The position numbers and the translations under genes are program-made. Below are positions 8,939-22,001 of a DNA stretch of 64,000 bases, one piece after another. The notes under the pieces are model-generated. The model was not told where the DNA came from and did not search any database. It worked only from the letters and a program-made list of their open reading frames with translations. Position 1 is the first letter of the stretch. Each line of letters opens with the position of its first letter. The DNA comes from Alphaproteobacteria bacterium (lineage in GTDB: Bacteria > Pseudomonadota > Alphaproteobacteria > UBA8317), in contig JAYPQH010000017.1 in the NCBI GenBank assembly GCA_038131935.1, positions 32,001 to 96,000 on the forward strand. The letters run 5' to 3'.

Positions 8939-10129
8939 ATGGCAAAAGCAAAGTTTGAGCGTAACAAGCCGCACTGCAACATAGGGACGATTGGGCATGT
9001 TGACCATGGTAAGACGTCATTGACTGCAGCGATCACGAAGATATTGGCGGAAGCTGGTGGAGCTGAGTTTGCGGCCTATGATGATATTGATAAGGCCCCG
9101 GAAGAGAAGGCCCGTGGTATAACGATATCGACGGCACATGTTGAGTATGAGACGGAAGCCCGTCACTATGCGCATGTTGATTGCCCTGGTCACGCGGATT
9201 ACGTGAAGAACATGATCACGGGAGCTGCGCAGATGGACGGAGCGATATTGGTTGTTTCAGCTGCTGATGGGCCTATGCCGCAGACACGTGAGCATATTTT
9301 GTTGGCACGTCAGGTTGGTGTTCCAGCGTTGGTTGTGTTTTTGAACAAGGTAGATCAGGTAGACGACGAAGAGTTGTTGGAGCTTGTAGAGATGGAAGTT
9401 CAAGAGCTTTTGACGGAGTATGAGTTTCCTGGTGATGAGATTCCGATTATTAAGGGTTCAGCGTTGTCAGCGTTGGAAGATCGGAATGACGAGATTGGTC
9501 GTAATGCGATATTAGAGCTGATGCAGGCTGTTGATGATTATATTCCGCAGCCGGATCGTCCGATTGACCAGGACTTTTTGATGCCGATTGAAGATGTATT
9601 TTCGATTTCGGGTCGTGGTACTGTTGTGACGGGACGTATTGAGCGTGGTATTTTGTCAGTAGGTGATGAAGTCGAGATTATTGGGATCCGGGATACGCAG
9701 AAGACGACCTGTACAGGTGTTGAGATGTTCCGTAAGTTGTTGGATCGCGGAGAGGCTGGAGACAATGTTGGAGCGTTGTTGCGTGGTATTGACCGTGAGG
9801 GTGTTGAGCGAGGTCAGGTATTGGCGAAGCCAGGATCGATTAAGCCGCACACGAAGTTTAAGGCTGAGACTTATATTTTGACGAAGGAAGAAGGTGGCCG
9901 TCACACGCCATTTTTTGCGAATTATCGTCCTCAGTTTTACTTCCGGACGACGGATGTTACCGGGATGGTGAAGTTACCGGATGGAACAGAGATGGTTATG
10001 CCTGGAGATAACATTGCGCTTGAGGTTGAGTTGATAGCTCCGATTGCGATGGAAGAGGGTTTACGCTTTGCGATCCGTGAAGGTGGCCGCACGGTCGGTG
10101 CTGGGGTTGTGGCGACAGTTCTGGACTGA
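8939..10129 (+). CDS. tuf: Elongation factor Tu (copy 1)
   Basis: [38 protein letters not shown]; 396 aa. Start set at ATG 8939 by identity with copy 2. Confidence 0.99.
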
Positions 10130-10183
10130 TCTGTCCAACATGTAAGGTTCCCGACCGGGCTATTGGTTCCCGGTCGGTGTTGT
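8939..10183 (+). repeat. 1245-bp direct repeat (tuf plus 54 nt of 3' flank); partner at 25198..26442
   Basis: Offset 16259 bp. Only 4 synonymous differences seen by eye. Confidence 0.97.
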
Positions 10184-10189
10184 CTTTTT
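10151..10189 (+). terminator. GC-rich hairpin after tuf (terminator or stabilising stem)
   Basis: CCGACCGGG-N9-CCCGGTCGG followed by TGTTGTCTTTTT; identical stem at 26410-26436. Confidence 0.55.
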
Positions 10190-10258
10190 AAGAAAACTAT
10201 CCCTTGCCAGGAAAGGTTCGTTCTGGCATACACCAGTTTTTCCGGTTTTCGGGGCTTT

Positions 10259-10334
10259 AGGAGTGTAGCTCAGTTGGTAGAGCACCGGTCTCCAAAACCG
10301 GGTGTCGGGGGTTCGAATCCCTCCACTCCTGCCA
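10259..10334 (+). tRNA. tRNA-Trp(CCA)
   Basis: Acceptor stem AGGAGTG/CACTCCT, anticodon arm CCGGT-CTCCAAA-ACCGG, GGTTCGAATCC, CCA end; usual position before secE. Confidence 0.97.
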
Positions 10335-10426
10335 AACATACATGGCATGGTATTTGTTATGTTGCCGATTGGTGTGAGCTGTTGGAGGCTAGAGTGGTCG
10401 GTTTGTTACTTGTTGGAAATGGGGAA

Positions 10427-10624
10427 ATGGGCAAAACATCACCAAATCAGTTCGTGCGCCAAGTCCGGCAAGAGGCCAGTAAAATTGTTTGGCCAACGCG
10501 ACGTGAAGCAGGTTTAACGACCCTAACTGTGTTTGTCATGGTGGTTATTGCGTCATTGTTTTTTGTTTTGGTGGATCAGGTTTCGGCCTTCCTCATCAGT
10601 CAGCTTTTGGGGCTGGGTAGATAG
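10427..10624 (+). CDS. secE: Preprotein translocase subunit SecE
   Basis: FVRQVRQEASKIVWPTRRE motif plus one TM helix; between tRNA-Trp and nusG. Confidence 0.95.
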   Translation: MGKTSPNQFVRQVRQEASKIVWPTRREAGLTTLTVFVMVVIASLFFVLVDQVSAFLISQLLGLGR

Positions 10625-10649
10625 TATTTTCAGAGGTTAATGCGGTTTT

Positions 10650-11180
10650 ATGGCTCATCGCTGGTACATTGTTCATGCCTATTCTAATTTTGAAAAGAAA
10701 GTCGCCGAGGCTATTTCTGAGCAGGCGGCGTTGAAAGGGCACGAAGACGATTTTTCTGAAATACTTGTTCCAACTGAGGAAGTTGTCGAGGTTCGTCGGG
10801 GAAAAAAATACTCTACTGAACGTCGTTTTTTCCCTGGTTACGTCTTGGTCAAGATGAACATGAACGAAGAGACGTTCCATTTGGTTAAGTCCGTTGGAAA
10901 GGTAACAGGTTTTTTGGGGTCTGGAAGTAAGCCGCAGCCGATTTCCGATGCTGAAGTTGCACACATCATGAATCAAGTTGAGGAGGGTGTTGAGTCTCCA
11001 CGTCCCTCAATCACTTTTGAGGTTGGTGAGGAAGTTCGTGTAACGGACGGTCCGTTCCAGTCATTCTCAGGTGTTGTTGAAGATGTTGATGATGATCGTG
11101 CTCGTTTGAAAGTGGCAGTGTCTATTTTTGGCCGGGCAACGCCTGTAGATTTGGAATATGGACAAGTAGAAAAAACATAG
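10650..11180 (+). CDS. nusG: Transcription termination/antitermination factor NusG
   Basis: RWYIVHAYSNFEKKV, FFPGYVLV, KOW domain ending IFGRATPVDLEYGQVEK. Confidence 0.99.
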   Translation: MAHRWYIVHAYSNFEKKVAEAISEQAALKGHEDDFSEILVPTEEVVEVRRGKKYSTERRFFPGYVLVKMNMNEETFHLVKSVGKVTGFLGSGSKPQPISDAEVAHIMNQVEEGVESPRPSITFEVGEEVRVTDGPFQSFSGVVEDVDDDRARLKVAVSIFGRATPVDLEYGQVEKT

Positions 11181-11187
11181 TTTTTTT

Positions 11188-11216
11188 GGTGGGAGGCTTT
11201 CGCCAGCCTAACCACC
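11188..11216 (+). promoter_or_regulatory. Putative uL1-binding autoregulatory leader of rplK-rplA
   Basis: GGTGG-GAGGCT-TTCGCC-AGCCT-AA-CCACC: two helices around a purine-rich internal loop, upstream of rplK. Confidence 0.65.
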
Positions 11217-11262
11217 GCGCACAAAATGCCGGATTAGTGTCGGCTGAATAGAGGAGTGTGTT

Positions 11263-11693
11263 ATGGCGAAGAAAGTTATTGGCTCGCTGAAGCTTCCAGG
11301 TTCCAGCAGGAAAGGCAAACCCCTCACCGCCCATCGGGCCAGCGTTGGGCCAGCGTGGTTTGAATATTATGGAGTTTTGTAAGGCGTTTAATGCTGCGAC
11401 CCAGGAAATGGAAGCGGGTATGCCAATACCCGTTGTTATTACCATTTTCCAAGATAAGTCATTTACATTCACGACCAAAACCCCGCCGGCGTCCTATTTT
11501 TTGAAAAAAGCAGCTGGCCTGAAATCAGGTGGTAAAGAGCCAGGTCGATCTGTGGCTGGGTCTGTGACAATGGAACAAGTGCGGGGAAATTGCTGAGGCA
11601 AAGATGGCGGACTTGAATGCCAATGATATAGATGCTGCCGGAAAAATTATTGCGGGTTCTGCGCGGGCTATGGGTTTGGAGGTTCGTGATTGA
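11263..11693 (+). CDS. rplK: 50S ribosomal protein L11 (two +1 indels, near 11296 and 11586)
   Basis: Reads [44 protein letters not shown]...[18 protein letters not shown]...MGLEVRD after removing one C and one G (142 aa). Confidence 0.95.
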
Positions 11694-12397
11694 TGGCTAC
11701 AAAAGCTGGGAAGCGTATCCGTAATCTTCGAGATGGCCGTGATTTTAAGGTCGTTATGAGTCTTCAAGATGCTGTTGCTGCGGTTAAAGAAACATCGAAT
11801 GCCAAATTTGATGAGACGGTAGAAGTCGCTATCAATCTTGGTGTTGATCCTCGTCACGCAGATCAGATGGTGCGTGGAGTTGTGAGTTTGCCGCATGGAA
11901 CAGGTAAGACGGTTCGTGTGGCTGTTTTCGCAAAGGATGCGAAGGCCGATGAAGCTAAAGAGGCGGGTGCTGATGTGGTAGGTGCCGAAGATCTGATGGA
12001 AGCTGTTCAAGGCGGAAAGATTGATTTTGATGTATGCATCGCAGCTCCTGATATGATGGCGATTGTTGGTCGCTTGGGAAAAATTTTAGGGCCAAGAGGG
12101 CTTATGCCTAACCCTCGGGTTGGCACTGTGACCCCAGATGTGGGCAAAGCTGTTCGTGATGCAAAAGGTGGTCAGGTGCAATTTCGTGTAGAAAAGGCGG
12201 GTATTATCCATGCTGGCGTTGGCAAAGCATCATTTCAGCCTGAGCAGCTTGTAGACAATATCAAAGCCCTTGTAGATGCCGTTGCACGTGCTAAGCCCAC
12301 GGGTGCTAAGGGTACGTATTTGAAAAGAATTGCTGTGAGTTCCACAATGGGACCCGGCTTTAAAGTCGAAGTGGGAAGTGTCGGGGCTGACGCTTAA
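11693..12397 (+). CDS. rplA: 50S ribosomal protein L1
   Basis: [36 protein letters not shown]; TGATG coupling with rplK. Confidence 0.99.
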
Positions 12398-12433
12398 CCT
12401 GCTCGATCTTGTTGGGATTCGTTCCAACAAGGA

Positions 12434-12610
12434 CCTGTCCGAGACCAAGGGTGCTCCGGAGATGAAGTTCAAAGGAGCTTAATGATACGGCCGTTGGTAG
12501 ATGGGAGCGTCGAGTGAGGAAACTTAATCGGTGATCCTGAACGGGCATTCGCCGGCTATGAGGCAAGAGCATAACTTGTTCAACTCATGGCCATAACGTT
12601 AACAGGGTCC
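12434..12610 (+). promoter_or_regulatory. L10 leader (L10-L12 autoregulatory RNA) plus downstream hairpin
   Basis: CTGTCC-GAGA-CCAAGGG...TTAAT...CCGTTGG-TAGA-TGGG kink-turn-type pattern at 12434-12506. A second stem follows: GATCCTG/CAGGGTC enclosing GGCTATGAG/CTCATGGCC. Confidence 0.7.
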
Positions 12611-12646
12611 GCTATTATATGTGGATTCTAGTATGAGGAGCGAAAC

Positions 12647-13195
12647 ATGGACAGAGCCCAGAAACGGGAAATGGTAGGCCAGCTTTCAGAGGTCTTTTCC
12701 CAAGCAGGGGTTGTGGTGGTTGCCCACTACACTGGTCTGACCGTGGCGGATATGACGCAATTACGTAGTCAAATTCGTGACGCAGGCGCTAACTTCAAAG
12801 TTGTAAAAAATCGCCTGGCTAAAATCGCTCTCCATGGCACGCCAATGCAAGGGATTGCAGAGAAGTTCAACGGCCCAACGGCTATTGCATATTCAAATGA
12901 TCCTGTCGCAGCTCCCAAGGTTGTTACCCAATTCGCCAAGAAAAATGATAAATTGGTTGTTTTGGGTGCGGCACTGGGCAATACTGTCCTTGATTTGGAT
13001 GGTGTGAAGGCCCTGGTGGATATGCCACCAATCGAAGACTTGCGTAGCAAGCTTCTGGGTCTTTTGCAGGCACCTGCTTCCAAGCTTGTGGGGCTTCCAA
13101 ATGCTCCAGCACAAAAGCTTGTTGGTGTCTTACCAGCACCTGGCAGCCAGTTGGCCCGCGTGTTCCAGGCTTATTCCTCGAGCCAAGCGGCCTGA
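12647..13195 (+). CDS. rplJ: 50S ribosomal protein L10, 182 aa, with four 11-aa C-terminal L12-binding segments
   Basis: [36 protein letters not shown]. Confidence 0.99.
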
Positions 13196-13232
13196 GCGTA
13201 ATTTATCCACTTAACCGAAAGAGAGAAAGAAA

Positions 13233-13625
13233 ATGGCAAATCTTGAGCAACTCGTGGAAGATCTTTCTTCCCTTACAGTTCTTGAAGCAGCTGAATTGGC
13301 AAAGCTTCTTGAAGATAAATGGGGCGTTTCTGCTGCTGCTGCAGCGCCCATGGCTATGCCGATGCCAGGTATGATGCCTGCAGCAGGCGGAGAAGCCGAA
13401 GCAGCTGAAGAGAAGACTGAATTTGATGTCATTTTGACGTCAGCAGGCGACAAAAAGATCAATGTGATTAAAGAAGTTCGCGGCATTACAGGTCTTGGCC
13501 TGAAAGAAGCAAAAGAACTTGTAGAAGGTGCGCCAAAGCCAATCAAAGAAGGTGTATCTAAGGATGAAGCAGAAGAGCTGAAGAAGAAGCTTGAAGAAGC
13601 CGGTGCCGGCGTTGAGCTTAAGTAA
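13233..13625 (+). CDS. rplL: 50S ribosomal protein L7/L12
   Basis: [50 protein letters not shown]. Confidence 0.99.
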
Positions 13626-13654
13626 GCTTTGCTGCAGAGCATAGAAGAAAATCC

Positions 13655-13685
13655 AGGAAGCGCAAGCATGCTCGCGCTTCCTTTT
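13655..13685 (+). terminator. rplL-rpoB intergenic terminator/attenuator
   Basis: AGGAAGCGC-N10-GCGCTTCCT followed by TTT. Confidence 0.65.
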
Positions 13686-13723
13686 CGCCGTTATGGCATG
13701 GCAGTTATTTAAAGGGGTCAGAT

Positions 13724-22001
<8,278 letters not shown>

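Follow-up and report, generated by a model that had tools for sequence, protein, structure and literature searches.

In three-unit ribosomal stalks, each unit of helix 8 of protein uL10 holds one dimer of bL12 N-terminal domains, and the mobile bL12 C-terminal domains recruit the translational GTPases. The number of dimers differs between bacteria: two papers give two per L10 in E. coli and three in Thermus and Thermotoga (PMC4592705, PMC10931766), and according to a third (PMC6021402, section 10) native mass spectrometry showed the stalk to be heptameric in T. thermophilus and T. maritima but pentameric in E. coli and B. subtilis. In all three papers, the number of L12 copies is determined by how long the L10 tail is (PMC4592705, PMC10931766, PMC6021402). 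Up to four dimers are mentioned there for Arthrospira platensis or ‘some cyanobacteria’ (PMC4592705, PMC10931766, citing Davydov et al. 2013), and one passage is worded in a way that implies that the table of Davydov et al. already includes some eight-copy species outside the cyanobacteria.

In the literature that we examined, eight-copy stalks are in print only for some cyanobacteria, and the literature searched, which did not include Davydov et al. 2013 and its supplement, yielded no description of an alphaproteobacterial eight-copy stalk. Why the L12 copy number should be four, six or eight is called a mystery in one of these papers (PMC4592705). A simulation study proposes that a higher L12 copy number shifts the balance from sampling towards factor binding and is associated with slow growth (PMC12179292).

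The uL10 gene of the analysed locus

We examined a stretch of 64,000 nucleotides (‘the window’) from an uncultured marine alphaproteobacterium, in a metagenome-assembled genome comprising 67 contigs and 2.48 Mb, with an estimated completeness of 89.9% (handle G000). The window contains the gene order nusG-rplK-rplA-rplJ-rplL-rpoB. The rplJ product matches the Ribosomal_L10 family profile PF00466 over residues 1–98 with 99.5 bits, well above the curated cut-off of 22.8 (Pfam), and PDB uL10 chains match it with E-values down to 5e-25. It is the single PF00466 match in the 2.48-Mb assembly, so that profile score, position in the operon and single copy all identify it as uL10. Its features, and those of its tail, are as follows.

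12647..13195, + strand: rplJ, ribosomal protein uL10, 182 aa plus stop (PF00466)
12647..13021, + strand: uL10 globular N-terminal domain, residues 1–125 (Pfam match to residues 1–98, AF2 model)
13022..13036, + strand: MPPIE loop preceding helix 8 (most three-unit relatives have LPSLD)
13037..13069, + strand: unit 1, best matched by the ‘first unit’ profile and aligning with T. thermophilus ELRAELVGVLQ
13070..13102, + strand: unit 2, middle-type, with Pro at position 10, best matched by the ‘middle unit’ profile
13103..13135, + strand: unit 3, middle-type, best matched by the ‘middle unit’ profile and the closest unit to unit 2
13136..13168, + strand: unit 4, last-type, best matched by the ‘last unit’ profile
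13169..13195, + strand: C-terminal tail AYSSSQAA and TGA stop

The initial annotation of this DNA had divided the C-terminal helix into four 11-residue units, and both the translation and the statistics of the repeat bear this out. Residues 131–174 form four such units, starting at 13037, 13070, 13103 and 13136, with a period-11 sum-of-pairs BLOSUM62 score of 96; when these 44 residues are shuffled the score falls to −54 ± 17, and none of 20,000 shuffles reached the observed value. Autocorrelation along the uL10 tail peaks (with positive values) at lags 11 and 22 only. The hexamer AAGCTT does recur, as had been pointed out, at an exact 33-nt period (13049, 13082 and 13115); this is the sole such triple in the window, and none of 100 shuffles produced any. 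At the DNA level the units are identical to one another at only 15–18 of 33 nucleotides (45–55%), with units 2 and 3 forming the closest pair (7/11 residues and 18/33 nucleotides), and Tandem Repeats Finder reported no DNA repeat at 13037–13168. Because the units have diverged in DNA and are not detected by that program, we conclude that the repeat is old, in agreement with the initial annotation, which had described an in-frame duplication of old date.

Comparison with three-unit relatives and measured stalks

A first sample of the class, with one genome per family, gave an L10 match in 36 of 41 genomes and 30 loci, and the window was aligned with the 29 other loci, which come from 29 other families (row L017 being an unpublished genome, G040). 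In 28 of these 29 relatives an exact 11-residue gap falls opposite one middle unit, that is, opposite one of units 2 and 3, leaving three units; the remaining one (G019) lacks two units. The earlier statement that a typical alphaproteobacterial L10 has three units and that of the window one more is therefore confirmed across these families. The two-unit uL10 of G019 (locus L016) has 161 residues, and the corresponding bL12 hinge, at 21 residues equal to the shortest in the sample, fits the trend in hinge length described below.

In a search of 5.8 billion clustered proteins, the best match outside the cluster of the window uL10 itself is 70% identical to it, 171 residues long and three-unit, and there are no clusters between 70% and 90% identity. 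When that three-unit relative was used as the query, all 80 named loci that were found, including Kordiimonas, Terasakiella, Eilatimonas, Sphingomonas and Pelagibacterales, were three-unit, in a set that is biased by its search patterns. The window protein shares its N-domain and its operon with the typical alphaproteobacterial uL10s (as in Kordiimonas, Terasakiella and Sphingomonas), the nearest N-domain being 66% identical, but those proteins have 168–176 residues and three units, whereas that of the window has 182 residues and four.

A similar difference is seen against the structurally characterized L10(L12)6 stalks of T. thermophilus (4v63, chain BJ) and T. maritima (1zav), which share with the window the unit motif xPxxxLVGvLx and an ‘AY’ ending. 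The three units of T. thermophilus L10 (4v63_BJ: ELRAELVGVLQ, APMAELVGVLG and GVARELVGILE) align with window units 1–3 and are followed directly by ‘AYA’, whereas in the window protein a fourth unit precedes the ‘AYSS’ ending, so that its tail is one unit longer than that of a measured three-dimer L10. The total lengths are 182 residues for the window uL10, 173 for 4v63_BJ and 180 for 1zav_A.

The cyanobacterial L10(L12)8 stalk of A. platensis, as described in PMC4592705, PMC10931766 and PMC12179292, likewise has a tail long enough for four dimers, with copy number read from length. It belongs to another phylum and has an independent origin, and the eight copies were measured there and are predicted for the window. 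The measurement in A. platensis is reportedly that of Davydov et al. in 2013 (Nat Commun 4:1387).

Recurrence of four units within Alphaproteobacteria

We extended the comparison to a 400-genome sample of the class, in which 359 of 401 genomes (G000 included) had an L10 match; the best 150 matches for each of two probes (whole protein and C-terminal part) were considered, and candidates were those with a match as long as the query, plus some neighbours. Within these limits, four units were verified by sequence in at least 11 of the 358 matching genomes other than G000, representing seven families. They comprise three genomes of family f79 (G372, G079 and G246), three of family f73 (G368, G242 and G073), one of family f14 (G326, two family mates of which are three-unit), and G163, G138, G159 and G185. 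In genus g73, all 13 species align without gaps over 178–180 residues of a four-unit query; the unit count was read from match coordinates (in the order of G073, 25 genomes) and checked by sequence in three of the 13. The four-unit state is stably kept in this genus.

Protein clusters from metagenomes tell the same story. Twelve of the best 119 non-self clusters are four-unit (P0014, P0031, P0036, P0040, P0049, P0052, P0057, P0079, P0088, P0090, P0093 and P0095), and in five other long clusters the length is due only to an extended N-terminus or to extra residues at the C-terminus. With the tail by itself as the query, 11 more four-unit L10s came to light, ten of them full-length at 178–183 residues (one of which was called from an upstream start, at 214 residues) and one a 111-residue fragment.

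The initial annotation had called four-dimer stalks rare, which these counts show to be an overstatement, since the state occurs in at least seven other alphaproteobacterial families and is fixed in a genus of 13 species. It had also allowed that four segments might prove common in Alphaproteobacteria, and this is in part the case. As judged from sequence, the four-unit state, known from cyanobacteria, is not unique to the window lineage within Alphaproteobacteria.

The four-unit uL10s of the 11 genomes named above are, at 178–184 residues, similar in length and unit number to that of the window, as are the metagenome proteins P0014, P0031, P0040, P0052, P0057 and P0172–P0182. In these proteins, as in the window, MPPIEE often precedes helix 8, the LP/xP junction between units (slash marking the unit boundary) is frequent, and bL12 has a long hinge that is in most cases rich in Met. 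They differ in having separate origins (rpoB tree, below) and N-domains at most 54% identical to that of the window.

The MPPIE[DE] loop (13022–13036) and the LP/xP junctions (13097–13111 and 13130–13144) are found in many unrelated four-unit L10s, namely those of f79, f163, P0014, P0040, P0052 and P0171–P0181. The corresponding loop reads LPSLDE in most three-unit L10s and MPSIDE in the nearest three-unit relative of the window.

Age and origin of the fourth unit

A tree of rpoB was built from 28 hand-chosen rows, comprising nine four-unit rows with a usable rpoB, 18 three-unit rows (among them G085 and G098, labelled from match coordinates only) and one two-unit row (IQ-TREE, LG+G4, with SH-aLRT support). 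The window joins three rows of family f64, all three-unit, with SH-aLRT support of 100, and the resulting group sits within a clade of 15 rows of which 13 are three-unit. The four-unit label requires four changes on this tree, and well-supported branches force four. Since the window groups with three-unit rows, the gain of its fourth unit appears to be local, and the suggestion made at the outset that it was gained independently of other four-unit lineages is upheld. The sequence signature of an eight-copy stalk has arisen at least four times within Alphaproteobacteria, and one of these gains lies between relatives with 70%-identical L10s, which provides close six-versus-eight pairs to express and compare.

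The extra unit most likely goes back to an ancient event inside the window lineage, in which the middle unit was duplicated in frame; such a duplication predicts two middle-type units, and the middle-unit profile is the best match of unit 2 as well as of unit 3. The GTDB order of the window contains two species genomes only, and in the other of them (G001, of the same genus) the contig begins inside rpoB, so that the rplJ-rplL region is uncovered. The rplJ stretch itself is present in 19 runs of 12 studies, from marine, seawater, lagoon and salt-lake metagenomes. Given runs from 12 studies set against an order with two species genomes, the lineage is widespread yet barely sampled. The 90% protein cluster of the window uL10 has nine members (two of them called from Met9, at 174 residues), which are identical in residues 126–182 in all nine cases; there are five variable positions over the whole cluster, a diversity too low to show selection.

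Two alternative accounts of the extra unit bear on whether it is real and where it came from. A metagenome-assembled genome of 67 contigs is a source in which a 33-nt unit might be suspected of being an assembly or sequencing artefact. The units are, however, merely 45–55% identical in DNA, the contigs of runs X5, X7 and X13 (from three studies) cover 12900–13300 and that of run X4 (from a fourth) covers 12971–13300, all with no gaps and with T>C at 12985 as their sole difference from the window, and the two commonest variants of the 182-residue uL10 in the cluster were called on 38 and 31 contigs. These observations refute the artefact reading, to which we assign practically no probability, and they agree with the initial judgement that the repeat is no read error. 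The second account derives the four-unit tail, together with the adjoining L12 N-domain and hinge, from a different four-unit alphaproteobacterium by way of recombination, in place of a local duplication. It would explain why the MPPIE motif, the LP/AP junction and a PMAMPM hinge are common to unrelated four-unit lineages, and why the 33-residue bL12 N-domain of the window (13233–13331) is identical in protein sequence to that of G079 (L032:1380–1478), which belongs to another family. That identical domain is only 78% identical in DNA, which points to conservation or convergence and not to recent transfer. DNA identity to five four-unit lineages is 49–78% in every segment and no higher than in the flanks, and a recent transfer is therefore not indicated. 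The L10 N-domain has its closest counterpart in f64 (66% identity) and does not exceed 54% identity with any four-unit row; for the L12 C-domain, three-unit rows come closest (91%). Both domains thus track the species tree. On these domain affinities and DNA identities we reject a recent horizontal transfer or recombination of the tail and regard import as a whole as quite improbable; an ancient, as against a recent, transfer of the four-unit tail may have occurred.

Local duplication remains our preferred account: the fourth unit is, on the evidence of the sequences, real and independently gained, and eight L12 copies are predicted. Taken alone, a further lineage for which an eight-copy stalk is predicted adds only modestly to the picture.

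Predicted occupancy of the four units

We built unit profiles from the class sample, using its 41 distinct tails with three units. In leave-one-out scoring against the pooled profile, genuine units have a 5th percentile of 9.7 bits and a median of 21.6 bits, and 1080 control 11-mers from N-domains score at most 0.7. The pooled scores of window units 1 to 4 are 12.5, 14.4, 14.8 and 23.3 bits, and their best position-specific matches are to the ‘first’ profile for unit 1 (20.8 bits), the ‘middle’ profile for units 2 (11.7 bits) and 3 (13.1 bits) and the ‘last’ profile for unit 4 (24.6 bits). All four units thus keep the pattern of genuine units, with the caveat that unit 2 has a proline at position 10. 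Units 2 and 3 lie low in the range of middle units (5th percentile 9.1 bits, median 25.7 bits).

A warning had been attached to the initial annotation that extra prolines in units 2 and 3 may weaken a site. For unit 2 the warning is justified: position 10 of the middle unit in the 41 three-unit relatives is occupied by L (29), V (5), A (3), T (2), M (1) or I (1), and never by Pro. A proline at position 11, at the LP/xP junction, is found again in other four-unit L10s (ILPAPAT, VLPQPAT, ILPRPAQ...ILPAPAS).

Structure prediction adds little in either direction. In an AF2 model of uL10 (from 16 four-unit sequences), the mean confidence of 10-residue blocks is 84–92 up to residue 120, and residues 142–167 have pLDDT values below 50; the latter are uninformative, because this segment folds on its partner. 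A complex prediction of four copies of bL12 residues 1–36 with uL10 residues 138–168 (units 2–3), run without controls, scored 0.10 and 0.14, where the mark is 0.32, and is neutral on binding.

On balance we favour the reading in which all four units are occupied, forming a predicted L10(L12)8 stalk, and we consider it somewhat probable. The competing possibility, which we think rather unlikely but worth serious attention, is that the extra unit is real and that one of the four, with unit 2 the likeliest candidate, has lost its dimer, so that the stalk would remain L10(L12)6 and the additional 11 residues would serve as a spacer, making helix 8 longer or putting a kink in it. The position-10 proline of unit 2, absent from 41 of 41 three-unit middle units, and the low scores of units 2 and 3 inside the genuine range would both fit a spacer. 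Elsewhere, units score below the genuine range in some other four-unit lineages (for example unit 3 of L038 at −14.4; units 2 and 3 of L051 at −14.7 and −11.5), and not every 11-residue unit therefore need be a site. All four window units nevertheless score above the genuine 5th percentile and far above the controls, unit 2 keeps the K-L-V-G-L core, and the LP/xP junctions recur in other four-unit L10s, all of which argue against the loss of a site.

Under full occupancy, each unit would bind one bL12 N-domain dimer to give an L10(L12)8 stalk bearing eight factor-recruiting C-terminal domains, and four occupied units could in this way lead to a stronger pooling of factors. Full occupancy is an inference, as is a possible influence on the recruitment of EF-Tu, EF-G or IF2.

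The bL12 hinge in four-unit lineages

The start of rplL lies 37 nt past the rplJ stop. Its product is identified as bL12 by the presence of both domains and by its position directly downstream of rplJ.

13233..13625, + strand: rplL, ribosomal protein bL12, 130 aa plus stop (PF16320, 59.5 bits; PF00542, 114.8 bits)
13233..13331, + strand: bL12 N-terminal dimerisation domain, which binds L10, residues 1–33
13332..13418, + strand: bL12 hinge, 29 aa with 5 Met and 4 Pro
13419..13622, + strand: bL12 C-terminal factor-binding domain (Pfam)

In a comparison whose loci include L031–L041 and L051, the hinge measures 27–32 residues in all 11 four-unit loci with an L12 (the window included) and 21–28 residues in three-unit loci, and a hinge of at least 27 residues is present in 11/11 of the former and 3/45 of the latter. 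At least two Met residues occur in the hinges of 10 of the 11 four-unit loci (for example PMAMPMMPG and GGGMMMMPG) and in two of the 45 three-unit loci, both from family f150. Four-unit lineages therefore tend, with exceptions, to have a longer and Met/Pro-rich L12 hinge. Among independent pairs on the rpoB tree, all four differ in the same direction in hinge length (sign test, p = 0.125), and three of four do so in hinge Met, with one showing no difference (p = 0.25); four pairs cannot reach significance. Because the rows of the hinge comparison were chosen by hand and kin among them are not independent, we treat the trend as a lead and not as a result.

There are counter-examples. Family f150 and locus L147 are three-unit and have Met-rich hinges, and G372 is four-unit with a hinge that contains no Met. 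The nearest three-unit relative of the window has a hinge of 27 residues and no Met, as compared with 29 residues and five Met in the window. In view of these cases, and in particular of the 27-residue, Met-free hinge of the nearest relative, the shift in composition looks more consistent than the shift in length. Among the papers listed by the literature search, we found no description of a Met-rich bL12 hinge.

It is conceivable, and we put it forward tentatively as a doubtful idea, that repeated gains of a fourth site, each with a longer, Met/Pro-rich bL12 hinge, an MPPIE loop and LP/xP junctions, represent a convergent, co-adapted eight-copy state. If so, L10 and L12 would change together, and the extra unit would be no simple length variant; pairs like that of the window and the three-unit relative with a 70%-identical L10 would in that case lend themselves to asking what L12 copy number does.

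Observations on the flanking DNA

In the 249-nt spacer between rplA and rplJ (12398–12646), the Rfam L10-leader had no match at E <= 0.1. An Rfam scan of 10000–14000 gave a tRNA at 10259–10331 as the only RNA match.

Between rplL and rpoB, a 12-bp GC-rich palindromic hairpin (of the GGAAGCGCGAGCATGCTTGCGCTTCC type) is located at 13655–13682 and is followed on the + strand by TTTTCGCC. The known rplL-rpoB attenuator occupies this position.

The rpoB alignments of the window (13724–17821) to families f79, f73, f150, f159, f98, f19, f163 and f138 (loci L070–L078) break near residue 220, which suggests a possible insertion there. For the window rpoB and its closest relatives, f64, f11 and f14 among them, the alignment continues past residue 220 without a break.
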